In this document: positions 6,301 through 46,472 of the stretch, piece after piece
Layout of the letters: each line of letters opens with the position of its first letter
How positions within the stretch are numbered: the stretch's first letter is position 1
Assembly (NCBI GenBank): GCA_048938105.1
Contig: JBHLMN010000011.1
Coordinates: 143,709 to 207,708 of the forward strand
Length of the DNA: 64,000 nucleotides
Direction of reading: 5' to 3'
DNA from: Promethearchaeota archaeon
GTDB taxonomy: Archaea > Asgardarchaeota > Heimdallarchaeia > Hodarchaeales > Hodarchaeaceae
Notes under the pieces: model-generated
Told to the model about the DNA's origin: nothing
Seen by the model: only the letters and a program-made list of their open reading frames with translations
Database searches by the model: none
Position numbers and translations under genes: made by a program

Positions 6301-7959
6301 ATAGTAGGGGTCAGTCCGACCAACAAAGTCATAAGTGTAACCTGGAGGTAATTCAGAAACATCTAATTTAATTATATCTGATTTACCATAATCATTCCAC
6401 ATGGAAATATCATACATCTGATCATAAGGACGTATATTTGAAAGAACATCGAAACTTGAACGACTGGTCTCGCTAACCTGCATAGAAAAATCATAGACAT
6501 CTGATGACTCATAAGATACACCTGGAATCGAAAAAGAATCGTTGGAGCCTATTTGAATTGGAGCGTCTGGGTTATAATAAGTAAATCCTGGAAGATCAAA
6601 TTCCCAGGAGGGTAACCATTCGCTAAATGGTATTCTTATGTAGGGCTTTGATCCAGTAACAGGATTAGGTATTTTAAGATCGTCGAAATGAAACCATAAA
6701 TTAGGAACAGACCGTATTCGGTGGACATTTAAGACGAAATCATCAATATCAAGTGATAGAAGTTGATTTGTAGAAGTGTTTACCCTGAAATCGATACTTC
6801 GGGTTTCATTTGCTTCAGTCCAAATGATAGGTTTTTCTGGACCACCGTCGACTGTCAAACTAGCCGTGATAATTGATTTATCTAACGTTATATAGCCGAA
6901 ACCAATCCCAAATGAACAAATTTCATCAAGAATGAGCGTGTAAATTCCCCCTTTGTCTCGGATAAGATATGAGATATCGATACTCCCGGGAATATCAATT
7001 CTAGCTTCTCCTTCTCCAATTGGAGTAGTATAGTCATTAAATTCATGATAGTCATAAAAAATAGCGTTTACAGAGGCTAACACGAACCATTCCCATTTTG
7101 GAGGTTGAGGAATTGATTCCTCAACCCAAACATACCCAGTAACCCATTTCCACCAATCTTTTATCTTGAACGACTTCTTGACCAGTTGTGTAAGAGGTGG
7201 TTGTGGGAATAAAAATGTGGCTAAAAACCAGAGATTTAGATTTTCAATGTCAACTTTTACTTCAAATTCATGGAAGGTGGGATCGTCATAAGGGATGAGG
7301 GTGCAGTTTAGTGTATGAGTTGTGCCTTGAATGACTTCTTTCGGATATTGCACCTTTAATATCACCGGAAAACAGAAGTTAAATTTTACGAGAAACTTAC
7401 CTGTTACCATAAATTTTAATTTTGGGTGTTCTGTACGAATATGCTTCGTTATAGATTTATCTAGATCTATTTTCCATCTATACCCAATTATTATCTCCTC
7501 TTCTGCTGACAACATCTCAGGTTCAAACCCATCTTCAAGTTTAGAACGAATTGGAATGGTGATGTCTTGAAAACCAGAAGAGTTAGACCCCATAATTGTT
7601 ATTTCAGGTTTTCCCATTGTAGAGTGGTCTATTGAGTAACCATTGGTGTCTTCTTCATCATTAAAATCTAAGGTGTAATCATCAAGAAGTATATTTTCGA
7701 CCATTTCTTGATAATTTAATCCTTCCATGGAATTTGAAAGAAACGAAACGTCTTGAGGATCCCAAGTTTCCATTATAAGATCGGTAATCTCGTTTTCCGT
7801 TTGAGTTTCATCTGTAAAGTCATCCAAAATGGATTCTATCTCTTTTGCTGTAATTATAGGATTTGTCTGTTTTTTCGCCCCTACTCCTCCTAATTGAATG
7901 AGTAATAGGACTAGTAAGAAAATACCCCATGGTATTTTATTTAACTTGAATTTAATCAC
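3319..7959 (-). CDS. Giant cell-surface protein with CARDB/Ig-like domains and a PGF-CTERM-like anchor
   Basis: Signal peptide; NxGNxxD motifs; repeated D-x-x-P...W-x3-D...Y beta-sandwich units; C-terminal ASGFE + TM + KRKKR; GTG start overlaps the upstream TGA (GTGA). Confidence 0.8.
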   Translation of the reverse strand: MIKFKLNKIPWGIFLLVLLLIQLGGVGAKKQTNPIITAKEIESILDDFTDETQTENEITDLIMETWDPQDVSFLSNSMEGLNYQEMVENILLDDYTLDFNDEEDTNGYSIDHSTMGKPEITIMGSNSSGFQDITIPIRSKLEDGFEPEMLSAEEEIIIGYRWKIDLDKSITKHIRTEHPKLKFMVTGKFLVKFNFCFPVILKVQYPKEVIQGTTHTLNCTLIPYDDPTFHEFEVKVDIENLNLWFLATFLFPQPPLTQLVKKSFKIKDWWKWVTGYVWVEESIPQPPKWEWFVLASVNAIFYDYHEFNDYTTPIGEGEARIDIPGSIDISYLIRDKGGIYTLILDEICSFGIGFGYITLDKSIITASLTVDGGPEKPIIWTEANETRSIDFRVNTSTNQLLSLDIDDFVLNVHRIRSVPNLWFHFDDLKIPNPVTGSKPYIRIPFSEWLPSWEFDLPGFTYYNPDAPIQIGSNDSFSIPGVSYESSDVYDFSMQVSETSRSSFDVLSNIRPYDQMYDISMWNDYGKSDIIKLDVSELPPGYTYDFVGRTDPYYNIGSYPTSAHLVVSPPEQISVPPGDVDFTISATSLAKEHFQLTDATVTKTASLTVPKLVDFSFDLEQGTSEIIQVQAGEDVLIGYYGRNNGNMNDTIKTNAILNLGDSNYTWKDVHSVDPYGSGSGYYYNGEIGFSFSLEDIYPSPGLYELEIKASNVRSPTISRTKTVYLNFSEAYNAESAIWPNNTVMFADWEINFTLEVKNLGNVPDSFIIASDGWNDYLIIPKNTTTIAPMDIDKVIVTLRISNPDDVPEGTYDFRILLISTRSGETAIFHGSDVSIAVYAPDYVPPGITHLFPRDPSKLVTYPTSSLTHGLAVIAHDEWPHKLEIFIDNSPFTSYNWTSDDLIQVPVTGSNQLMEGLHNITLVFNDTNDNIASTELWVNITATDYISPIIGPSLDLEFPENFKFTQHLHWDCTEEFLWNATIFLNGNPLLLSDDYKVYQRAGEEPLWHIECPIEPGSLTTGVYNFTLFIQDFNNNSASSTILVTITSNDNLIPTFTSPLPSSLGYQSRNENLSIIVTDSYPSHYKLWINSVLEVEGTWQSDQPLIFYSDELPLLIGDNEIELTIFDLANNSNTYPWTYQFRDIDAPTFLSEPSDFTVFEHNLSDTVLPFWQVEDLNPGYYRIYRDGQLVIEDRWGSASNNITIPKSSLTAGKFTFKIEVNDTSGNTDYSSVEVTVNDVIAPYVWPLKSYQFDPFSAPDWFEWLIIEHHLDRFEVYCNDEKVDEGSLKDKLPVVFMRITDYSPEEYNYTLLAYDESGNIGRDTIIVTVTDYAAPYIQAPPHLIFSEGTTGNSLVYEILEANPHSYSLYLDGELEDSGPLETTTLIVSVDGLIMGNHTYILIVQDQQGLSYSCTSYVLVVDTTAPTITRVADCRFVSGDEGAYITWDVFDLHPASLTIKRNGTVIREESWTEDEITLYIVGWAIGAHNIELEVMDTSGNVASDEVLVIIVGEESVSEPIKVSASGFEYILVLFVITILSSMKILKRKKRI

Positions 7960-10900
7960 TTATAAAACCTCCTTTTTTCTCTAGCTCTACGTCTTGTTGC
8001 TACAATCAATAATAAAAGAGGAATAATAAAAAGGAATTCAAATCCTGGAGCAGATTGAGCTTTAGTTATGGTAGCAGTAACATCATCGAATGCGAAGTTC
8101 CCCGATACGTCGTAAACAACGCACCGAAAATGATATGTCCCCTCGCTATATTCAGATAGGTCTAGCGTAATATCTTCGCCAGACCAGCTACCACTTTTTA
8201 TGACTCCGCCATCTGGGAGTAAGAGAATTTCAAATCGTGAAGGATTATCATCAGAAACAACCCAGGTAATATTTATTTCGTGACCTACAGGAAAATCGTA
8301 ATCAGGAAGTAACAAAATCGTCGGTGGCGAGTTATCTCCTGTAACCGTCACATGAACGGTTTGGGAAGTAGATTGGTCGTAAATATCCCAAGCTTTGATT
8401 ACTATCACATAAGAACCAATATCCAAACCATCTAATGAATAAATAACTTGTCTATTTGGAATAACCCATATAACTTCCATGATAATTACCCCATCTTGAG
8501 ATATTGAGAAAGCTTTAGGATGTTCATCAAAAATATAGAATATTAGGGAGTTACCAATTGTGCCATGAGAAAATTCAACATCTGGTTGTTGAGAAATCAG
8601 AGGTGCTTCAATGTCAATCTCACTCCCTTTTACCACTCTTACAAGAACTTTACTTGAGGCATTGTTTCCTGCTTGATCCCAAACCGTTAAAGTAAATTCC
8701 CAAGTTCCTAGGGGGAGAGAAGTAAAATAATATTGAACAAGACCACTCTTAGTATAATCTTGAACAAGAACTAATGTACCATTTCGATGGATCATGAAAA
8801 ATTGAGGATTTTCATCATATACTTCCCAAATGATGATGCCATAGATATTTTCGGCAATCCTTAAGTCTGCAGGATGGCTTATTGTTGGTGAGGTAATATC
8901 AGGCAATAGAGGGAAAACTGTCACAGTTGTACTAGCAGAGAAATTATTCAGTTCAAGATCCCACAATGTGAGAGTAACTACCCAGATGCCAATATCTAAG
9001 CCATCTACTGATGTTGTAATATTTTCCCCACGCCAAGGGCTATAAAGAAGTTCAGTACCATTGATGACTGTTCTAAATGCATAGGGATGATCATCAGAGC
9101 AGTACCATGTTAAATTGTGGCCCGTTGACCCTTCTTCATATTCAATAGGATTGGGAGGAATAATTGTTGGTTGAGTACTATCTGGAACCTTATGAAACAC
9201 TGTAATAAATACAATACTAGAGTTATAATTTCCAGCTTCATCATATATGGTGCAGTTATATTTATATGTGCCTGCAGTCAAATTATCGAGTGATATTTCA
9301 ATATCATTACCAATCCAAGCTTGATCATAAATTTTGGTCTCATTCTCCCAGACTGTTGACCACCAAGGAGACCGATCGTCGGATCCAGACCAGACAATTG
9401 AATAACCGATATTACCCTCTTCAAAGCTAATATTATCAGGAGAAGAAATCCAGGGTGGAGTCTCATCAGGAGTAAGAGGAAGTACAGTGACCCATACTTC
9501 GTCGGATGTTCTCCTTCCGAAAATATTCTGAACAACACAAGTAAAGTTGTGTTTACCTTCTTGTAATCCATCTAGAGGCACAATAATTGAATCATCATAG
9601 TCGATGTCTTGTTGATAAATTGAATTATTTCGATAAACTGTATAGTTTGAAGGATAATCATCAACTATTGTCCAAAGAATAGTCCTACCGGTCGAACCAA
9701 AGAATATAGGAAAATCACTTGGGCCTGTGATAATAGGGTAAACATTAAGAATTGTAAAAGAGTTATCAGATGTATCCAAACTATTTAATGTCCCATCACT
9801 TGCATTAACAAGGATCTGATAAGTATCTCCATTTGGTACTGTCCGTGTATCCCAATCATAACTCGTTTCGGTCAACCCCTTCACAAATTCGACCCAATCA
9901 GATCCATCCCAGTAAGAAAGATTATAGGTCAAAGGATCTCCATCAGCGTCACTAGCAGTCCAGGTTACGGTCTCAATTCCCATCAACATTTCACCACCAT
10001 TGGGATAGAGGACTGTTACAACAGGAGGATCAGGATTATTAATTGTAAAGGAGGCATCGGAGGTATCACTACCAATCAATGCTCCATCACTTGCATTAAC
10101 TAGGATCTGATAGAAATTCCCATCTAGAACCATCAATGTGTCCCAGTCATAACTTGTGCTGGTCAATCCCGTTATTAATTCAATCCAATTTGATCCATCC
10201 CAGTAGGAGATATTAAAATGCAAGGAATCCCCATCAGCATCGCTTGCGGTCCAAGTAATAGTCTCAAATCCCATCAAAGTTTCACCACCATTGGGGTAGA
10301 TGACTGTAACGATAGGAGCATGGGGATTATCAATGGTAAACACTGCATCAGACTCGTCTTGCTCACTCAGTCTCCCATCATTCACTATGACACGAATTTT
10401 ATAGTTAGCACCATCTGGCACCGTCATAGTATCCCAGTCATAACTTGTGCTGGTCAATCCCATTATTAATTCGATCCAATTTGATCCATTCCAGTAAAAG
10501 AGATCAGATGTTAAGGAATCCCCATCGGGGTCACTCGCGGTCCAGGAAATGGTAATGGTTCCACTTAGCATTTCGCCACCATTGGGATAGGTGAGACTTA
10601 CTGTTGGGAGTTGTTCTGCTGTCAACCACTCAATAATGTTCGACGCTAGAATCTCATTATCACTATCATATAAATTGATGGTTCCATCACCATCTGTGTC
10701 ACTATTACTCCACAAATAACCTGCTCCAGGATATACAACTAGTCTTCCTGTACCTGCGATCCCTGAATCAAAAGCACTTATCACGGAAACTCCTGATGCT
10801 GTAGAATCATTCCCCCAAAATTTAGCAGTCCCATCAGTATCACACTTTATGAGGGGGATTTCCTCTGAGGGAGTAGATTCAAAGAAGCTGGGGGCATACA

Positions 10901-11474
10901 TTTCTACCCGAGACACCCCCTGCGTTATCGCATGAGAAAGGATGTTCGTATCATTAAAGATCACATAATTTTGGTTCCCACCAGCATAATCATTAGTATC
11001 ATAAATCCAGTCATCCCATCCTAACGGAAGAGTTCCATATCCGAATAGATCCCATAATAAGTCATTGGTAAAAGCACCATACTCAGCAGGTCCGCTTATT
11101 ATTAGCAAACTACCTCCAGACTGAAGCCACGCTTTAATTGCACTGTGTTCGGCGGAAGTATAATTAAAGATTTGTGTTGGAGCTGTAATAACCAGGACAT
11201 CAGCTTCGTTCAATACTGAAGCGTTAATGACATCACCCGAACCAAGTGTATCAACAATGTACCCATCGTTTTGCAGCATGGCAGCAAACTGAGAGTAGCT
11301 AGAGGAAATAGGCAAGTATGGATTATGAGCTTCATCGAAGAGAATCAACCCCTTGGCTCCTGGCGGGAGTACTGTACTGTTAGCTTGAGAGAACGTAAGT
11401 GAAGTAATTAAAAAAATTATAAAAACTAAATATTGCTTAATAATTGGTATTTTACTCATTCTTTCATACCTCAA
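7956..11474 (-). CDS. Cell-surface protein: GIFT/DUF4350-like N-domain, three YPNGGE Ig-like repeats, further Ig-like repeats, PGF-CTERM
   Basis: Signal peptide; ILFDEAHN...DVLVITAP...WLQSGGSLLI; three 97-aa repeats; APGFE + TM + RRRAREKRR. Confidence 0.85.
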   Translation of the reverse strand: MRYERMSKIPIIKQYLVFIIFLITSLTFSQANSTVLPPGAKGLILFDEAHNPYLPISSSYSQFAAMLQNDGYIVDTLGSGDVINASVLNEADVLVITAPTQIFNYTSAEHSAIKAWLQSGGSLLIISGPAEYGAFTNDLLWDLFGYGTLPLGWDDWIYDTNDYAGGNQNYVIFNDTNILSHAITQGVSRVEMYAPSFFESTPSEEIPLIKCDTDGTAKFWGNDSTASGVSVISAFDSGIAGTGRLVVYPGAGYLWSNSDTDGDGTINLYDSDNEILASNIIEWLTAEQLPTVSLTYPNGGEMLSGTITISWTASDPDGDSLTSDLFYWNGSNWIELIMGLTSTSYDWDTMTVPDGANYKIRVIVNDGRLSEQDESDAVFTIDNPHAPIVTVIYPNGGETLMGFETITWTASDADGDSLHFNISYWDGSNWIELITGLTSTSYDWDTLMVLDGNFYQILVNASDGALIGSDTSDASFTINNPDPPVVTVLYPNGGEMLMGIETVTWTASDADGDPLTYNLSYWDGSDWVEFVKGLTETSYDWDTRTVPNGDTYQILVNASDGTLNSLDTSDNSFTILNVYPIITGPSDFPIFFGSTGRTILWTIVDDYPSNYTVYRNNSIYQQDIDYDDSIIVPLDGLQEGKHNFTCVVQNIFGRRTSDEVWVTVLPLTPDETPPWISSPDNISFEEGNIGYSIVWSGSDDRSPWWSTVWENETKIYDQAWIGNDIEISLDNLTAGTYKYNCTIYDEAGNYNSSIVFITVFHKVPDSTQPTIIPPNPIEYEEGSTGHNLTWYCSDDHPYAFRTVINGTELLYSPWRGENITTSVDGLDIGIWVVTLTLWDLELNNFSASTTVTVFPLLPDITSPTISHPADLRIAENIYGIIIWEVYDENPQFFMIHRNGTLVLVQDYTKSGLVQYYFTSLPLGTWEFTLTVWDQAGNNASSKVLVRVVKGSEIDIEAPLISQQPDVEFSHGTIGNSLIFYIFDEHPKAFSISQDGVIIMEVIWVIPNRQVIYSLDGLDIGSYVIVIKAWDIYDQSTSQTVHVTVTGDNSPPTILLLPDYDFPVGHEINITWVVSDDNPSRFEILLLPDGGVIKSGSWSGEDITLDLSEYSEGTYHFRCVVYDVSGNFAFDDVTATITKAQSAPGFEFLFIIPLLLLIVATRRRAREKRRFYK
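9736..10608 (-). repeat. Three tandem 291-bp intragenic repeats (97 aa each)
   Basis: Anchor CCATTGGG(A/G)TAG at 9997, 10288 and 10579, an exact 291-bp period; outer boundaries approximate. Confidence 0.92.
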
Positions 11475-22422: not shown

Positions 22423-24062
22423 ATGAAGTTGAAATTCTTGTTTTTCAGAAGGTCTATGGGAAAGTTCTTTGTATTATTCATCTTGGTTACACTATTCCAT
22501 CCATGGATAATACAAAAATCATTAAATAGCACACCCAAGACTGTACAACAAGGTAAATTATCTAAATTCAATATTATAAACAAAATGAACAATGTAGAGG
22601 ACGACCTTGAGAATGTTCTTTCTATCACTCGTCATGATCCAGCAACAGTCCAAGAAGGGTTGACAATATTCGGTGTGTGGCGAGTAACGAGTCCTACTGT
22701 TGAAAATTTTTTGGACTCAATGATTATCATTACAGATATGGAAGGAAATGTTAAATCTTCACTACAATTCCCCCATATGAAGGGATTGTCTGGGATCCAG
22801 AATTCATCAATTCCACCACTTTTATCTATATTCTGACATCGAACAGCTTACAACTTTATAATATTCAAACAAAAAAGAGCGAAATCCTTCCTATCTCTCC
22901 TGGTCATCATGATGTGGAATATAATCCTATTTCTGACACATTTCTTACTGTATATTTCACACATTATGGATACTATGAGGATAAACCCTTACTATTTGAT
23001 GATATATATGAACATGATCGTGATGGGAATGTAATTTGGTTCTGGAACAGCAGCAGCCACATCCCATTCAATGAAACAGAATTTACTAAAGAAGCGTTTC
23101 TTGAACGATTCCAATGGACTCACGCTAATACTATCTTCTGGGACATTGAGGATCATGCTATCTACTATAATTGTAGACACTTAGATACTTTTTATAAAAT
23201 AGATTACCCCAGTGGTGAGATTCTTTGGTCAGCTGGAAGATTAGGTAATTTAAGGCTGTTTGACAAACAGGGGAACGAAAAACAGTGTTTATTCTATCAT
23301 AGTCACGCTGTGGAAGTAATTAGCCCCAACCATTACATTATTTTTGATAATGATTATTTTAATATCACTAGGGAAAACCCTAGAGAAGCAACAGGTGTTT
23401 CTCGTATGATCGAAGTCGTTGTTAATGAAGAATCAAAGACAATGAACGAAACATGGTCGTGGTCAGCGCCAACAGATTATTTTGGGGAAGTTTGGGGAGA
23501 TGCTGACCGTTTGCCAAATGGAAATCGGTTGGGAACTTTTGGTGTTCCTGACCATCCTGCTTATATTACTGAAGTAGACCCACAGGACAATATCGTCTGG
23601 GAACTAGCACTTGAACAAGCTAAATGGGATTATTTAGGAATTTATAATGCTGATCGGTTTTTTGAAGCTCCTTTAGTAGAAGTGGATCAAACAGAGTACA
23701 CAACTACCCCAGATGATGATTTAGTGTTCCAAGTTAAAGTATGGGATACTTTTAACACTAGGATAACTAGAAAAGGAACATTACGTATAGAAGAGAAGGA
23801 TAAGGTCTTAAAATCAATTGAATTCGAATTTCAACCCCACTGGCAAGAAACTCTCATTAATGTAAGTATCTTTGATCTTGGAAATAATGAACGAACATTA
23901 ACTCTTTCCATAACGAATGAAGATGACCTCAGTACTAAGATACCCATCGTAGTCAATGGAGGATCAGAGGATGCATCATTCGCGATTAAGACTGTTGTAG
24001 TTGGTCTTATTTCTTTAGCTTCAATACAAATAATCAGAAGAAAGAAAAAAATAACTTATTAA
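22423..24062 (+). pseudogene. Aryl-sulfate sulfotransferase (ASST)-family surface protein split by a single frameshift
   Basis: The frame of ORF 22914 is open upstream to about 22772 (PYEGIVWDPEFINSTT...PGHHDVEY). Adding one base at the C5 run 22770-22774 joins it to ORF 22423. Motifs HHD, WTHAN, HSHA, FDN, WGDADRLPNGN; C-terminal TM + RRKK. Confidence 0.82.
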
Positions 24063-25336: not shown

Positions 25337-26464
25337 TTAAGTACTCCTTATTTCAATATGTTTTACTTTTTCGATCCAAAAAGAGCCATGAAAGTTTTTT
25401 GCCACAATGCGAAGCCCAATCTCTGTTGATGTCATAATTATTGCTCTATCGTTATCGATTTCTTCTCCACTGAATTCTACTTGGTAACCATCAGAAGCAC
25501 TTAATTGAACTATAAAATGCTCAGTTTTAGGTTGAGCACGCTCTACGATAAAATATAAGGGGACTCCAGTATAGTTCTTTGTGGGAATATAGGTGACATC
25601 ACCAGTTAAATTCGCTTCAACTGTTATCTGTAAATCAAGGAAATCTGAATGATAGTAAGTGTATGGATTAAATACATCTCCAGATACTTCTGCAGAATAA
25701 CGGTTTTGAACGGTTAGGAAATAAAACACACCAATTTCGATTAGTACTATGACTATAATTATAATTATTCTCAGTATTTGGATTTGTTTCAGCTGATTAG
25801 GATCAGTCGGAGTCTTTCTCCAATTCAATATTGAAGATCTTTCAAAAAGTTTCCAAGTAGAGATTGACAAGAGCCCTCCAAGAAAAAAACCTGAAATAAA
25901 GCTTAAAAAACCGATAAAAACGATAAATAATAGCGGAATTTGAAAATTAAAGAAGAGTATCTGCTGAATAATGACATTTGATAAGCTAGAAAAACCTGCA
26001 GCTAAAGATAGAACAAATTTGTTTTGTGTTGATAAAAATACGATGATTAAAATCTCAATAATAAGTCCTTGAGTTCCAGATAAGACCACTACTAATATTC
26101 CATGAGCACTACCAGTAAAAAATTCAACAAATCCTTTTAAAATCCCTGCCATTAATGCGGTACCAACTTTTTGTTTTGTTAAGAGATAAATTAAGACTAT
26201 CCAAAAAACATGCATCCCACTCAAAATCTGTCCCCCCCCAAACGGAAGTCCAACTATATGATTGAGTAAATTCCCTAAATATCCGATAAATGTGCTAGAA
26301 ATTCCTCCCAATGCACTGAATAAGGCTATGATTACTAAATCACTCGTCTCATAATAACGAGTTGATTTTTTTCTCTTCTTTACTAGGTTCCCGTTGATCC
26401 AAGGGATTTTTGTTGTATGAAGGGGTTCAGGGATCTGTATTTTGGCTTCTTTCTCTTCTTCCAT
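25337..26464 (-). CDS. ECF transporter S-component (YkoE/ABC_cobalt-like) fused to a C-terminal molybdopterin-oxidoreductase-like domain
   Basis: DLVIIALFSALGG...KVGTALMAGILKGFVEFFTGSAHG...QGLIIE; extra TM; then VSGDV..P, YTGVPL, ASDGY, LRIV...WIEKV..I. Confidence 0.8.
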   Translation of the reverse strand: MEEEKEAKIQIPEPLHTTKIPWINGNLVKKRKKSTRYYETSDLVIIALFSALGGISSTFIGYLGNLLNHIVGLPFGGGQILSGMHVFWIVLIYLLTKQKVGTALMAGILKGFVEFFTGSAHGILVVVLSGTQGLIIEILIIVFLSTQNKFVLSLAAGFSSLSNVIIQQILFFNFQIPLLFIVFIGFLSFISGFFLGGLLSISTWKLFERSSILNWRKTPTDPNQLKQIQILRIIIIIVIVLIEIGVFYFLTVQNRYSAEVSGDVFNPYTYYHSDFLDLQITVEANLTGDVTYIPTKNYTGVPLYFIVERAQPKTEHFIVQLSASDGYQVEFSGEEIDNDRAIIMTSTEIGLRIVAKNFHGSFWIEKVKHIEIRST

Positions 26465-26466
26465 TT

Positions 26467-28050
26467 TTATCGTTCCAAAACTCGTAAAGATTTAACATAT
26501 TTCACCCATCGATACCCCGCTGAAGGCCAAATATGGAACCCTTCACCCAATGGAGAGGTGGCTTGACAATCATCATTACTGTACGCGCCATCAGGAGCCA
26601 GAAATACTATTCGAAAGCCATCAATCCATTCAGGCACAAAAGTTTCATTGTAAGAATAGGCAAGTATCATATCACCTTGAATAAATTTCCAAGAATTATT
26701 AGGAAAGATTACTGGGTAACTAAAATTCTGAATTAACCCATCCCACGCTTCGATCTCTAAGATATGATTAGGGGTCATTCCTCCCACAGTCTCCAAGAGA
26801 TCTCCTATTAAAACCCCCTTATATTCACCATAAGATCGCCAATTGCCATATTGGTTTTGAAAACTGCAATACCCACTCATTAAGCGAAATTCTAATTGTA
26901 AATCGGATATAGAAATAATATTGACAGATTGATTTTTAATTATCTCAATATCTGTAAGAGAGATTTTCTTTTTAAATTCTATTGGATTAACTGACCAATT
27001 TAACCATTTATTATCAAAGGTTATCTCAAGATAGTGATGAAACCCTCCCAATTCTTTAGATTCATGTAAAGCAGCCCCACCACCACCAGATGTTATAAAA
27101 TGTATATTTTCACGAATAGTATAATTATAGATATGAATATGACCAGAAAGAACAATTTTGACATTATTTTGGGTAAAAATCTTTAATAATAACTCACTTT
27201 GAGAATTATTTAAGAAATCATGCTCTTTTGAAGCACGAGGGTCGAATAAGGGAGTATGTGTAAAGATTATTTTTGGATATGTTGAGTAAATATTAAAAGA
27301 TTCTAAGAGAAAATCCATAGTAGACGATGTTAAAGATCCTGTTGATGAATCAAGCGAAATAAAGAGGAAATTTCCATATTTAAAACAATAATTTGATTCA
27401 CCAAAATGTTTTTGATATTGGATGCTAGAATTTTCGAATTTTATATCATGATTTCCAGGGGTAAAGAATACAGGCGCTGTAGAATTTCTCGTTATCTGTT
27501 GAACCTCATGAAATTGAAGAGGAGTGCCAAATGAAGTTATATCACCCAAATGAACGAGAAAAGAATAAGAATCATTGTTTAATTGACGGGTTAAGGTTTT
27601 ATATTTATGATAAAACCCTTGAGTGTCCCCTATAGCAGCTATCTTAAAAATGTCGTCCTGAATATCATTTTTTAGCACAATTTCTCGCTCTTGCTGAGGT
27701 TTACATAAAATTTTTAACGAAAGAAATGTAAAATTATAAACAGAATATTTTTCTTGATCCAACAATCCGTAAATTGTAAGATGTTCCGTTTGAATATTAG
27801 AAATTGATATATTTAGTGTTTTTTTTCTTTCTATTTTTATAGAACTGAACGATAAATTAAATCCTTGGTTCCAAATAAGAGCCTCTCTCGAGGTGGGATT
27901 ATAATCTAATAATGTACCGCCATTGATTTTAAATGGAAAATCAGTTGAATATTCTGAATCTTCCCAGAGAAGAAATAAAAAGAGAAAAGAAAGACTAAGA
28001 GATAAGATAAGTATTACTGAAAGACTTAATCCTATTACCCTTTTATTCAC
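26467..28050 (-). CDS. Membrane-anchored calcineurin-like metallophosphoesterase fused to a molybdopterin-oxidoreductase-like domain
   Basis: N-terminal TM; GDTQ, HLGD, PGNHD, HTP, SGHIH, TSGGGG; C-domain YKGVLI...AWDG...ILAY...FRIV...RWVKYVK. Confidence 0.85.
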   Translation of the reverse strand: MNKRVIGLSLSVILILSLSLSFLFLFLLWEDSEYSTDFPFKINGGTLLDYNPTSREALIWNQGFNLSFSSIKIERKKTLNISISNIQTEHLTIYGLLDQEKYSVYNFTFLSLKILCKPQQEREIVLKNDIQDDIFKIAAIGDTQGFYHKYKTLTRQLNNDSYSFLVHLGDITSFGTPLQFHEVQQITRNSTAPVFFTPGNHDIKFENSSIQYQKHFGESNYCFKYGNFLFISLDSSTGSLTSSTMDFLLESFNIYSTYPKIIFTHTPLFDPRASKEHDFLNNSQSELLLKIFTQNNVKIVLSGHIHIYNYTIRENIHFITSGGGGAALHESKELGGFHHYLEITFDNKWLNWSVNPIEFKKKISLTDIEIIKNQSVNIISISDLQLEFRLMSGYCSFQNQYGNWRSYGEYKGVLIGDLLETVGGMTPNHILEIEAWDGLIQNFSYPVIFPNNSWKFIQGDMILAYSYNETFVPEWIDGFRIVFLAPDGAYSNDDCQATSPLGEGFHIWPSAGYRWVKYVKSLRVLER

Positions 28051-28093
28051 TTGTCATACTCCCAAGGCTCTAATTTTACTATTATTACCCCAC

Positions 28094-30073
28094 CTAATTG
28101 GGAATGATAAGTATCTCTGCTATCGCATAGATCATCCTACTTGACTTAAATCCTAATCCGATCAAACGGAGTGGGGTATGCTTCTCATCTAATAAAACAC
28201 CGTTTCGCCTATAAGCAAGGATGATAGATTTATTATATGCAATCATTTGGCTGTCAAAATTTTTTGAATAGCCATCTTGAGCTTTAACCTGAACTATATA
28301 TCCTGTTGAAGCTAAATCGTCATTAAAATCATAATTAAACCCAGAATAGTGCGTTCCGCTGTCACCTCCGTCAAAAATGGCAACTATGACATATAATGGG
28401 ATCCCAACATAGGTTACATCCTTATCATCTTCAATAATTGTCAGAGAAGATTTGTGATGTTTACAACTGACTATAGTCAAATATTCTTCAGCAGTTAATA
28501 CAGCTGTATAACTTGAATTAATTTGGTTTGTTAAACTAATTGTCCAATGGAGAGTTGTTGTCGGGATATCGGTGATGATAATTGATTCTATTTTACTGAT
28601 CCATTGATCCATTGAAAGATCTGGTGATACCAACCTTACAGGAAACTCATCCTCGGGTAATGGGAGATTGTTTTTAACATGCGCTAAAATTAAGGAATTA
28701 TTTCGAGTTGTAATTGATGATGGAAGAGTTAAATTCGTTCCATCTGATGAAAAAATAGTAACATTGTATCCTTGAGCTGCCAGAGAGTCATTGAATGTAT
28801 AATGTTCACTACCATCATCTCCATCAACCATAGAGAGAGCGATCCACAAAGGCATACCTTCATAGGTAATTATTCGGCCAGCCTCAGAGTAAGTATGACT
28901 AACATTGTGAACATGATCTCCACAATAAACCACAGAATTGAAATCATCAAGACCAATGGATGTCTGAGAGACACCAGATAAAGTTATTGACCAGTCCGTA
29001 ATACCTGATCCTATTATTATTGTTTTAACATATTTTACCCAAAAATGACCCTCAGAAATAGGCCCTCCGGGACCAAGATAACCCATTCTAAAAGGTCCAC
29101 CATAATCGCTTTGAAGCGGTTCCCCATTTTCTTCATAAATTAATGTTAATGTGAGGTTTTCAAGTCCCCCATGGCCAATTTCAACTCCATTTTCGTCGAA
29201 AAGGGGAACATTTCCAAAGATTTGCGATTTAGTAAAAGTAAAATTATAAAAATCAATAGGTACAACCTTCATGGAAAAATTAGATGAAAAATCAAGTAAG
29301 AGATCTAAAGCAGCAGTCATGTTTACTCCTTTGTAATTGTATGGTCCAACAATAACCCCTGTTGTCTTCAAAAATGCCCCCGAAGCCTCGATAGAAGGAA
29401 GAAGTTGTAATTGAGAATGAGACAATGTAAATTTTTCATTAGGAGTTTCAAATGTGACTTTTTCATTTTCTCTGATAAATTCCAGTTTAGTAACCCATTT
29501 TGCCCAACGAACACTGGCAGCTGCATCCTTGTATTCTAATGATGCTGTTTTCCGTTGATCTTCCGTAGAATATTCCTCATCTGAGGGAAGAAAAACTATT
29601 CGTAACCCATCTTCCCATTTAGGGACTTTTGTATCGTTGAATTCATATGCTAAAATCATCTTTCCTTGAATTCCTTCCCATTCTGACGAGGGGTAAATGT
29701 TTTCATAAGTGAAGATTTGTGTATAATCATCTTCAGAAGTGACAGTCAATATATCACCCTGTTGAATTCCACCGACTTCTTCGGCTAAATCAGAGATTGG
29801 AACACCTCTATAAACCCCATTATGACGCCAATTCCCAAATGAATTCTGACATTTACTTGTTCCACTAATAGATGTTAACTCTTTTATATCTGTGAGAGTG
29901 AATTCTTTAGATTCCCCTGAGACTCCCAGTACTGTCAATCCAATTTCCTGGGTCATTTCTGGTTCAGTACAACCAGAAAGCAATCCAATCAATAGAAGCA
30001 AAAAACTGATTATTATAATAGACTTAAACCTCAAACTAGGTTCACCTATCATTTTCCTACTAAAAATTAACAC
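28094..30073 (-). CDS. Lipoprotein with four tandem molybdopterin-oxidoreductase-like domains
   Basis: Lipobox LLSGC; four units (YRGVPI, YKGVNM, YEGMPL, YVGIPL), each followed by D(G)Y-like, ILAY-like, P.R and W.K-like motifs. Confidence 0.85.
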   Translation of the reverse strand: MLIFSRKMIGEPSLRFKSIIIISFLLLLIGLLSGCTEPEMTQEIGLTVLGVSGESKEFTLTDIKELTSISGTSKCQNSFGNWRHNGVYRGVPISDLAEEVGGIQQGDILTVTSEDDYTQIFTYENIYPSSEWEGIQGKMILAYEFNDTKVPKWEDGLRIVFLPSDEEYSTEDQRKTASLEYKDAAASVRWAKWVTKLEFIRENEKVTFETPNEKFTLSHSQLQLLPSIEASGAFLKTTGVIVGPYNYKGVNMTAALDLLLDFSSNFSMKVVPIDFYNFTFTKSQIFGNVPLFDENGVEIGHGGLENLTLTLIYEENGEPLQSDYGGPFRMGYLGPGGPISEGHFWVKYVKTIIIGSGITDWSITLSGVSQTSIGLDDFNSVVYCGDHVHNVSHTYSEAGRIITYEGMPLWIALSMVDGDDGSEHYTFNDSLAAQGYNVTIFSSDGTNLTLPSSITTRNNSLILAHVKNNLPLPEDEFPVRLVSPDLSMDQWISKIESIIITDIPTTTLHWTISLTNQINSSYTAVLTAEEYLTIVSCKHHKSSLTIIEDDKDVTYVGIPLYVIVAIFDGGDSGTHYSGFNYDFNDDLASTGYIVQVKAQDGYSKNFDSQMIAYNKSIILAYRRNGVLLDEKHTPLRLIGLGFKSSRMIYAIAEILIIPN

Positions 30074-30353: not shown

Positions 30354-30626
30354 ATGGTATATGATATAAAATTGAAAGTAATAAAACAAGAAGGGTATTG
30401 CAACGCAGGACATGAATTAGGGGACGAAATATTCATTTCTTTTGAGAAGAACAAGATAAAAGGGAAAATATGTTTACATGCCTTATATTCGGTGTTACCA
30501 AAAGTATATGCTATGGCATATGGTGCTGAATTTCCATGGTTGGAAGAGCCAGATGTAAATACACACGCGTGTCCTGACGCCCAGAATCCTTTAGTCTTCG
30601 AAGTAAGAAGAATCAGAAAAACTTAA
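30354..30626 (+). CDS. TIGR04076-family small Cys-rich protein
   Basis: GYCNAGHELGD, ICLHAL, ACPDAQNPLVFEV. Confidence 0.85.
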   Translation: MVYDIKLKVIKQEGYCNAGHELGDEIFISFEKNKIKGKICLHALYSVLPKVYAMAYGAEFPWLEEPDVNTHACPDAQNPLVFEVRRIRKT

Positions 30627-45008: not shown

Positions 45009-46472
45009 TCAAGTGACATTCTCTCCAAAGAATGCCTCCAAGTCGTTAAGTAAGAATTCTAGTGCTTTTTCCTTTATTTTCTCCATAGTTACGGAATCAG
45101 TAGTTTCTTCTGCGAACTCGACTAGAAGATTAAGTTTACCAGAACATGTCACTACTCCTAGAACCAGATCAACAAGAGCTAATGGAAATCCTCCGCCTGG
45201 ATTAAATATCAATCTATCTAATTCTAATGATCCATATGTTCTCGGAAAATCTAATCGAGTAAGGTTTGTAATAGCCATTCCGAGAAAAGGTTTGTCTAGT
45301 GAATCCATCTTCTGTCTTTTGAGAATTGAGGAAACAACATCATCTTGCTTACTGAAAGTAGTGAGTTTATCATAGCGTGGAGAATCTGAAGAAACATATC
45401 TTCCAATCATTTTGAATCCTAGTGATTCTAAAATAGCTGGATCAAGATAGCACCAGGTCAAGGGTTCCTTGAAAAGATCTTTATTTGTGTACCGGTTTTT
45501 TAGAGTCTGATTTAATTTTCGTGCATTTTCCCAGAAACTCTTTTTCTCATTGTACTTGAAATCATGAGTGATACCACTCGCAAAATAACCCATAGCTTCT
45601 CCACTTGGAGTTTGAAGTCGATCTCTTATACTACCAGCGACCATAACATTGGAATTAACTTTATTGCCTTTAATGATAGACTGAGCAGCTATAAAGGCAG
45701 ACATCAATGCTGTATTTATGGTAACTCCTTCTTTTTTACATTTAGCAACTAAAGTGAAAGTATCAGTTTCTGAAAGTTCAACAGAGATCATTTGATGGGT
45801 AAAGGTTTTCCAATAAGCTTCATTAAGGCTTTCATAATCTATTTGATTGAAAAATATCGGATTACTAGCCCATTTCTTATTAATCCTATTGATGAAATAT
45901 TTGACAATTCGATTCATAGAGACTTTTTGAGGAAAATTATCTTCATCAAAAGGAACAGGGTTGGGTAAAACTTCCACCTCTTGAGTGGGATTTCCAAGGT
46001 ATGTCATAATATCTCTTGTAAGATAAGCCAAAGACATTCCATCACATATAATATGGTGGCAGACCATCAATAACTCTGAAACGGATTTTGAATTAACAAG
46101 AATAAAACGAATAGCTGGACGTTCTTCAAATTGGAACGGTATCTTACATGATTGATAATATATAGACTTCCAGTGTTCTGGGGATTCTCGAGAGATAATG
46201 GTTATAGGAATTTCTTTTATTCCATCAGAGGAAAACCATGGTGTACCAGAGTCATCGATATGGATACGTACTCGCAGATTAGCATGCCTTTGTTGTGCTT
46301 TCTTAATAGCATCTTTTAGGGAAGATTCAGAAACTTCTCCTTTAATCCGAGCGATCATGGTAACTATAGAATAGGGAGAATGACTGAAAATTCGTTCCAA
46401 TGGAGTAATCTTTCTATAAATCTGATCGATTTTTTCTAATGTCGTAATTTTCTCTGAATTCATGCTTTTCAC
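45009..46472 (-). CDS. Stand-alone condensation-domain / CoA-dependent acyltransferase (PapA5/alcohol acetyltransferase-like)
   Basis: RHANLRVRI, HHIICDG (HHxxxDG), ITNL. Confidence 0.85.
   Translation of the reverse strand: MKSMNSEKITTLEKIDQIYRKITPLERIFSHSPYSIVTMIARIKGEVSESSLKDAIKKAQQRHANLRVRIHIDDSGTPWFSSDGIKEIPITIISRESPEHWKSIYYQSCKIPFQFEERPAIRFILVNSKSVSELLMVCHHIICDGMSLAYLTRDIMTYLGNPTQEVEVLPNPVPFDEDNFPQKVSMNRIVKYFINRINKKWASNPIFFNQIDYESLNEAYWKTFTHQMISVELSETDTFTLVAKCKKEGVTINTALMSAFIAAQSIIKGNKVNSNVMVAGSIRDRLQTPSGEAMGYFASGITHDFKYNEKKSFWENARKLNQTLKNRYTNKDLFKEPLTWCYLDPAILESLGFKMIGRYVSSDSPRYDKLTTFSKQDDVVSSILKRQKMDSLDKPFLGMAITNLTRLDFPRTYGSLELDRLIFNPGGGFPLALVDLVLGVVTCSGKLNLLVEFAEETTDSVTMEKIKEKALEFLLNDLEAFFGENVT

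Follow-up and report, generated by a model that had tools for sequence, protein, structure and literature searches.

The stretch of DNA analysed here, called the window throughout, comprises 64,000 nucleotides of a Hodarchaeales genome (Promethearchaeota archaeon, contig JBHLMN010000011.1). It carries a cassette of three genes encoding a lipoprotein, a metallophosphoesterase and an S-component of an energy-coupling factor (ECF) transporter, which together contain six domains of the sulfite oxidase fold. From sequence comparisons and predicted structures we propose, with a probability of about 0.75, that the cassette captures a metal-loaded molybdenum- or tungsten-pterin (Mo/W-pterin) cofactor and imports it by an ECF mechanism in an organism unable to make it. 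To our knowledge, this cofactor is generally regarded as made by each prokaryote for itself. In a literature search of incomplete coverage we found no paper on its uptake by a prokaryote; uptake is described only for nematodes.

Cofactor synthesis and the fused S-component across Asgard genomes

The names of homologues put this genome (G000; 5.85 Mb, 99% complete, 7% contaminated) with Hodarchaeota-like Asgards. Its demand for such cofactors comes from about 19 genes: 13 of the aldehyde ferredoxin oxidoreductase (AOR) family, most with the usual motifs, four of the xanthine dehydrogenase (XDH) family and two Cys-containing members of the sulfite oxidase family. No gene of the dimethyl sulfoxide reductase family was found in the genome. 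The two Cys-containing enzymes (contig C35, 46529-47335, and contig C4, 176045-177082) are membrane-anchored, and in one of them the C-terminal membrane region has several helices. On the supply side, MoaC, MoeA, MoaE and the C-terminal domain of MoaA have no match in the genome. Translated searches (tblastn) with MoeA (twice), MoaC, MoaB, MoaE and TupA from the same genus and from Thorarchaeota likewise found no match in it, and a MoaA query returned only a 26% radical-SAM match; as a control, the neighbours of those query genes match the genome at 50-74%.

We profiled 300 Asgard genomes, each at least 80% complete, for the S-component fused to an outer sulfite-oxidase-fold domain (the S-fusion). 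We found it in 72 genomes, complete in 68 and truncated by contig ends in 4, and MoaC in 128; no genome has both (Fisher p 2e-21, a value that is overstated as kin are not independent). MoeA, found in 134, shares a single genome with the S-fusion (G079). That genome encodes TupA as well and may have the two routes side by side. For moaC, whose presence or absence the original prediction had proposed to examine, the outcome is thus an exclusion. Within family f11, 44 genomes have the S-fusion, 22 MoaC, none both and 5 neither, and six genera (g1, g21, g27, g47, g53 and g57) contain both states; the number of independent switches was estimated from such genera. All 71 other carriers of the S-fusion have AORs, 2-13 each.

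A subset of 56 carriers was compared with 22 MoaC-positive relatives. A TupA-like protein occurs in 1/56 carriers versus 21/22 relatives (a TupA query was used, PF12849 having mixed PstS and TupA), and the phosphoesterase fusion gives some match in 54/56 (full-length in 42) versus 0/22. Two control genes behave differently: ThiC is found in 0/80 genomes, hence in neither group, and GCHY-1 in 50/56 carriers versus 18/22 relatives. Since MoaC, MoeA and TupA track the system and these controls do not, the pattern singles out Mo/W-cofactor synthesis from among the pathways we compared. WtpA is missing from all 80 genomes and is uninformative. Outside the Asgards, MoaC is missing in 21 of 23 archaeal carriers, a set of unrecorded completeness and with no control set.

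Bacterial copies add regulatory evidence. In five operons (L100, L107, L114, L136 and L154) the first gene is immediately preceded by the molybdenum/tungsten cofactor (Moco/Tuco) riboswitch RF01055, and RF01055 alone was found, with no thiamine pyrophosphate (TPP) riboswitch, in the 14 bacterial loci scanned. This is the placement that would be expected for salvage shut off when cofactor is plentiful (PMC2408646). The same riboswitch also controls oxyanion transporters (PMC2408646), and together with the mutual exclusion with TupA and the Cys/His motifs in two lipoprotein domains, which could bind metal, it could point to an importer of tungstate, molybdate or a chelated metal that replaces TupABC, the cofactor then being made by unrecognised genes. 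Such an importer would account neither for the absence of the entire pterin pathway from carriers nor for the phosphoesterase and the vitamin-type pocket like that of YkoE; we consider it highly improbable.

Two further groups of Asgards were seen in the same survey. Most genomes of families f3 and f7 have neither MoaC, MoeA nor the S-fusion, and the seven tested have 5-9 AORs. In family f14 (92 genomes) there are S-component homologues of greater divergence (E about 1e-11 to 1e-23), which also tend to exclude MoaC: it occurs in 11/46 genomes that have them versus 33/46 without. These homologues possibly belong to a second salvage system.

Domain fold, binding pocket and energising module

The original prediction had assigned a sequence signature shared by all the domains to the Moco-binding fold of sulfite oxidase and MsrP. 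Structure matches bear out the fold. The AlphaFold models of the S-fusion (predicted local distance difference test score, pLDDT, 88.6) and the lipoprotein (pLDDT 90.5) both match the sulfite dehydrogenase SorA, YedY/MsrP and PruR, and the outer domain of the S-fusion also SoxC. This outer domain superposes on SorA with a VIA Z of 15.3 (root mean square deviation, rmsd, 1.9 over 122 residues) and lipoprotein domain 2 on PruR with Z 16.0 (rmsd 2.4 over 131 residues); the four lipoprotein repeats (D1-D4) have one topology. The domain of the phosphoesterase was placed in the fold by its identity to D1 rather than by a model. The split of four, one and one among the three proteins is supported by Pfam, models and sequence identity. 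Most domain pairs are about 20-30% identical, with the exception of the phosphoesterase domain and D1, whose predicted closeness is confirmed at 42% over 146 residues (E 8e-39). Profile comparisons join all six to one another and to the genome's two Cys-containing enzymes, and separate D1 (with the phosphoesterase copy), D2, the D3/D4 pair and the S-type. The signature itself is only partly shared, as the S-component domain has no ILAY and D4 no terminal W.

In none of the six domains does a conserved Cys line up with the Mo ligand, as judged by sequence alignment to the genome's own Cys-containing enzymes rather than by superposition. D2 and the S-component domain are entirely free of Cys, the single Cys of D1 is unconserved among homologues, and that of D3 is out of register. 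Automatic names such as 'YedYZ catalytic subunit', and the conserved C..H(H) and HYxFN motifs of D3/D4 (in 42 and 38 of 61 D3-type domains), would suit a lipoprotein that works at the surface as an oxidoreductase or a metal-binding enzyme and has only a secondary link to transport. The missing ligand Cys, the fusion of the same domains to a transporter subunit and a phosphoesterase, and NCBIfam scores far from their cut-offs (SorT 26.7/570, SoxC 23.7/420, SorA 14/600 bits) make this hardly probable. A search of PDB sequences with the lipoprotein alone returned only SorT (E about 0.8).

PruR shows what a domain of this kind can do: its Cys-less sulfite-oxidase fold binds pterins through N102, Y104 and W160 (PMC11194511). 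In the S-component domain the invariant D325, Y327 and W363 may correspond to these three residues. From the lipobox, the N-terminal anchor of the phosphoesterase and the seventh helix of the S-fusion, we predict an outward orientation for all six domains. Related domains also occur, up to eight or nine at a time, in proteins of 1100-3100 aa (P0141, P0143, P0159, P0164 and P0216, and at loci L133 and L140), some with CARDB or SLH modules; these appear to be a variable surface capture array.

The six membrane helices of the S-fusion are closest to YkoE, both by search (E 3e-13) and by structure (PDB 5EDL, Z 23.7, rmsd 3.5 over 185 residues). In YkoE a Glu/Gln pair binds the aminopyrimidine of thiamine, the other contacts being Trp49, Asp131 and Tyr46 (PMC5037267). 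Equivalents of the pair (Glu77/Gln95) are retained in the S-fusion, while Trp49 is replaced by His and Asp131 by Gln (each 37/37) and Tyr46 by Ala/Ser. Pterin also has an aminopyrimidine ring, so the kept pair and the altered other residues fit a change of ligand. The likeness to YkoE, the retained pair and the lack of ThiC in all 80 tested genomes are what one would expect if the system imported thiamine or hydroxymethylpyrimidine (HMP), or a pterin other than Moco such as a folate or methanopterin precursor, with the phosphoesterase dephosphorylating the vitamin. We regard this as very unlikely, given the replaced thiamine contacts, the tracking of the system by MoaC and not by ThiC or GCHY-1, and the type of riboswitch in the bacterial operons.

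We surveyed linkage at 80 related loci, drawn from Asgards, Thermoplasmata, Hadarchaeota, Theionarchaea and Bacillota. In 57 of the 58 evaluable loci the S gene has a fused AA' and a T gene behind it; ahead of it lies a gene of the sulfite oxidase fold in 61/69 and a phosphoesterase in 42, and the complete three-gene order occurs in 27. Linkage of the genes, for which a test across archaea had been suggested, is conserved in archaea and Bacillota. The sole evaluable locus lacking AA'-T is L080, the closest relative (82%). Its genes are arranged in the same way next to proC, and the split between S gene and AA'-T is therefore not an assembly error. The prediction that no ECF A or T genes lie nearby is correct for the window but not for the genome: an orthologous AA'-T is found on contig C36 (8875-11100), 69-74% identical to the pair behind S in L012 and set between the same flanking genes, with the S gene alone missing. 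In two MoaC-positive congeners these flanking genes are directly adjacent and there is no cassette. From the 57/58 loci and the C36 ortholog it follows that the module is dedicated and displaced, not shared, which overturns the earlier proposal of import through a shared ECF module. The ECF system thus appears as a dedicated group I importer with its AA'-T displaced to C36. Its core is the S-fusion, AA'-T and the D1-type domain; the phosphoesterase is accessory. The other two ECF T genes of the genome belong to a CbiMNQO-like cluster and to a separate S-A-A-T cluster, and neither is therefore part of the cognate module.

The genome also has a second PF09819 S-component, on contig C14 (220791-221489; L016:6789-7478), 45% identical to that of the window. 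It has no seventh helix and no outer domain, some of its pocket residues differ, and its orthologs lie 6-13 kb from an AOR gene in several congeners. It may share the C36 AA'-T module.

A proposed route for the cofactor

The metal-binding motifs of the phosphoesterase (D142, D170, GNHD 199-202, H265, H304 and H306, the first motif being D-x-Q) are present in 50/50 or 51/51 homologues, from which we conclude that it is probably active. The N-terminal anchor is kept in 45/50. As to subfamily, the enzyme reaches no NCBIfam cut-off, has no PDB sequence match and falls only into generic Atlas clusters. The phosphoesterase is missing in half of this genus's carriers, and family f17 mostly has a kinase but no phosphoesterase.

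We found this APH/RIO-like kinase linked at 33 loci, among them loci of Thermoplasmata, of Thorarchaeota and of one Syntrophomonas; it occurs in 33/34 Thorarchaeota carriers versus 0/19 MoaC-positive Thorarchaeota. By analogy its linkage suggests dephosphorylation outside and rephosphorylation inside, a pairing known from thiamine and riboflavin salvage. The prediction that the cargo is dephosphorylated and then imported gains from this linkage in other lineages; against it, no such kinase was detected in the genus or in the genome, and AOR, sulfite oxidase enzymes and MocA all need the phosphorylated molybdopterin (MPT) form. The genome retains a MocA-like gene beside its XDH genes. Because of this need, cleavage of the nucleotide from molybdopterin guanine or cytosine dinucleotide (MGD/MCD) is at least as likely here, and we favour it slightly over removal of the phosphate.

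Two candidates for a substitute kinase were set aside: a weak match on contig C11 is Rio2-like, and a SerK-like ParB kinase directly behind the T gene on C36 is taken to be a housekeeping neighbour, as MoaC-positive congeners have it too. The latter (L018:8180-8920) matches a free serine kinase (PDB 5X0B, E 6e-18), is conserved in the genus and adjoins ThyX and a nucleotidyltransferase-like gene. In some Thorarchaeota (L013, L121, L128, L139 and L148) a molybdopterin oxidoreductase gene lies within the cassette, between kinase and phosphoesterase, and in Hodarchaeota an AOR and a ThiS/MoaD gene lie a few kb upstream of it.

We envisage that the lipid-anchored four-domain protein would bind the cofactor released by dead cells or neighbours and shield it. 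The anchored phosphoesterase would grip the pterin end with its D1-type domain and trim the phosphate end, either cutting the nucleotide from MGD/MCD to leave the MPT form or taking off the phosphate, which would be put back later. The outer domain of the S-component would hand the ligand to the membrane pocket, where the Glu114/Gln132 pair may read the aminopyrimidine ring of the pterin, and the C36 AA'-T would drive its release inside. There the AORs could use it directly, and the MocA-like enzyme could remake MCD for the XDH-family enzymes. For the receptor relay originally predicted, the non-catalytic fold, the gene linkage and the exclusion of moaC and moeA support the importer; hand-over between the proteins and binding itself are put forward here as proposals.

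Small pterins fit pockets of the PruR type (PMC11194511), and the fold, the riboswitch and the loss of moaA/moaC are equally compatible with import of a metal-free precursor or breakdown product, such as cyclic pyranopterin monophosphate (cPMP), MPT or an oxidised pterin, that unrecognised enzymes finish or repair inside; the linked kinase of other lineages also points to processing inside. MoeA is missing in 71/72 carriers, however, and TupA in 55/56, and neither MoaE nor MoaB was found in this genome, leaving no known way to add dithiolene sulfur or metal. We therefore consider this unlikely. As carriers are without metal insertion, the tungstate transporter and the pterin steps, the metal-loaded cofactor would be the simplest cargo.

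Several points weigh against import of the intact cofactor. Free Moco is unstable, and the bis-pterin W cofactor is large for the pocket of an S-component. The tethered extra helix would have to be compatible with toppling. Published work describes the pocket of PruR as too short to take Moco (PMC11194511; PMC13259868). MoaC is kept in 10/12 bacterial carriers, so that there the system complements synthesis. About 100 of the 300 Asgard genomes have neither MoaC nor the S-fusion and the nine tested all have AORs, so some live without either. Finally, the counts of the profile are not independent, as carriers are related, and since tupABC-moa-moe form one operon in Thorarchaeota, their loss was possibly one event per lineage.

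We think it fairly likely that a large share of Asgards, Hodarchaeales among them, are auxotrophic for the Mo/W cofactor and obtain it intact and metal-loaded by cross-feeding, by means of a dedicated ECF system, surface capture domains and a trimming enzyme. If so, the cofactor would be a shared microbial vitamin with its first prokaryotic transporter, and both the transporter and its binding proteins could be named. Genomes with a dozen tungstoenzymes yet no moa/moe genes would be explained, and a growth requirement would be predicted that could help in cultivating Hodarchaeales, Thorarchaeia and Hermodarchaeia. Proteins able to bind Moco and keep it stable would be of interest for research on Moco deficiency, and the bacterial versions, one of them in the named strain Anoxynatronum buryatiense (L157), make the system directly testable.

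Gene map, neighbouring genes and known systems

The features of the cassette are listed in Table 1. The predicted arrangement of three co-oriented genes with gaps of 43 and 2 bp was reproduced from the open reading frame (ORF) list. The lipoprotein ORF has 659 aa from a GTG, the database call beginning 13 codons later, and its lipobox comprises residues 32-35, with the Cys retained in close homologues. By Pfam, the lipoprotein has four PF00174 stretches (E 2e-19), the phosphoesterase an intact Metallophos domain and a weak PF00174 stretch, and the S-fusion PF09819 (E 4e-15); no haem partner was found among the adjacent genes. The GC content of the cassette resembles that of its flanks, and a promoter and terminator scan gave results no better than chance.

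Table 1. Features of the cassette (window coordinates).
Feature	Position	Strand	Basis or remark
Lipoprotein with domains D1-D4 of the sulfite oxidase fold in tandem, putative capture protein at the surface	28094..30073	-	ORF, Pfam, model, Foldseek/VIA
Lipobox LSGC behind hydrophobic signal segment	29969..29980	-	Sequence
D1, QNxxGNWR type	29468..29947	-	Type commonest next to S gene
D2, GxxxKxTG..GP type, Cys-free	29006..29464	-	
D3	28565..28999	-	Conserved C-x(1-6)-H(H) motif past first helix; HYxFN insertion
D4	28097..28549	-	Duplicate of D3 (31% identical)
Calcineurin-like metallophosphoesterase with N-terminal anchor and fused D1-type domain	26467..28050	-	527 aa
Hydrophobic anchor of metallophosphoesterase	27964-28038		
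Metallophosphoesterase domain	26983..27651	-	Homologue alignment
D1-type sulfite-oxidase-fold domain of phosphoesterase	26470..26958	-	42% identical to lipoprotein D1
ECF S-component fusion	25337..26464	-	375 aa
YkoE/PF09819-family six-helix part of S-fusion	25829-26350	-	Pfam, model
Seventh membrane helix of S-fusion	25709-25780	-	Model
Outer sulfite-oxidase-fold domain of S-fusion	25340-25705	-	Outward topology predicted from model and positive-inside rule

Divergent from the lipoprotein lies a small Cys-containing protein of the TIGR04076 family (30354-30626), which is outside the system because L080 has other genes at that position. On the other side, an arylsulfotransferase-family gene (22423-24062) is broken into ORFs of 137 and 382 aa by a frameshift or sequencing error, L080 having one ORF of about 560 aa. 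Elsewhere the window encodes a large immunoglobulin (Ig)-repeat surface protein with a weak match to an IFT52 GIFT-like domain at its N-terminus (7956-11474) and a stand-alone condensation domain protein of the non-ribosomal peptide synthetase (NRPS) type (45009-46472; PF00668, E 4e-21).

The system can be set beside several known ones. With the sulfite oxidase family (SorA 2BLF, SoxC 2XTS, YedY/MsrP 1XDQ; PF00174) its domains share the core fold and the Y/W-x-G-V-x-L, D-G-Y, I-L-A-Y, R-L-V and W-V-K motifs; unlike these enzymes, at 14-23% identity, they are without an in-register Mo-ligating Cys, a dimerisation domain and a haem partner. PruR (PDB 7KOS, 7KOU, 7KOM, 7KP2 and 7RKB; PMC11194511) is likewise an extracytoplasmic Cys-less protein of the fold (Z 13-16), and the S-component domain has the invariant D-G-Y motif and late Trp. 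However, PruR has only one domain, is encoded in an operon with DcpA or a DTB regulator, acts as regulator of the diguanylate cyclase DcpA and takes small pterins other than Moco, whereas the cassette domains are in tandem or fused to transport or hydrolase parts, with ECF genes as neighbours and neither DcpA nor a PW motif seen.

In Caenorhabditis elegans, ready-made, protein-bound Moco from the diet is reported to pass between organisms and replace synthesis (bioRxiv 10.1101/2020.10.08.332338; PMC9793310), although there an animal ingests bacteria and no ECF system is involved. The Moco/Tuco regulon (Regulski et al. 2008, PMC2408646; RF01055) is linked to the cassette by the RNA that precedes its five bacterial operons. 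In S. wolfei, Regulski et al. had noted two RNAs lacking P3 that precede genes annotated as 'putative sulphite oxidase' (PMC2408646); they read these genes as enzymes, with salvage unmentioned.

The closest transporter is YkoEDC, the group I ECF thiamine/HMP transporter of Bacillus subtilis (5EDL; PMC5037267). The two have in common the PF09819 S family, the Glu77/Gln95 equivalents, a fused AA' and a T encoded with S (in relatives of the cassette) and riboswitch control. They differ in the extra membrane helix and outer domain of the cassette S-component, the replacement of Trp49, Tyr46 and Asp131, the added lipoprotein and phosphoesterase, the Moco/Tuco rather than THI riboswitch in bacterial relatives, and the location of AA'-T, here on another contig. 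By analogy, the system appears to work like YkoEDC equipped with PruR-like capture domains, while departing from YkoE, PruR and the sulfite oxidases in the features that define each of them.

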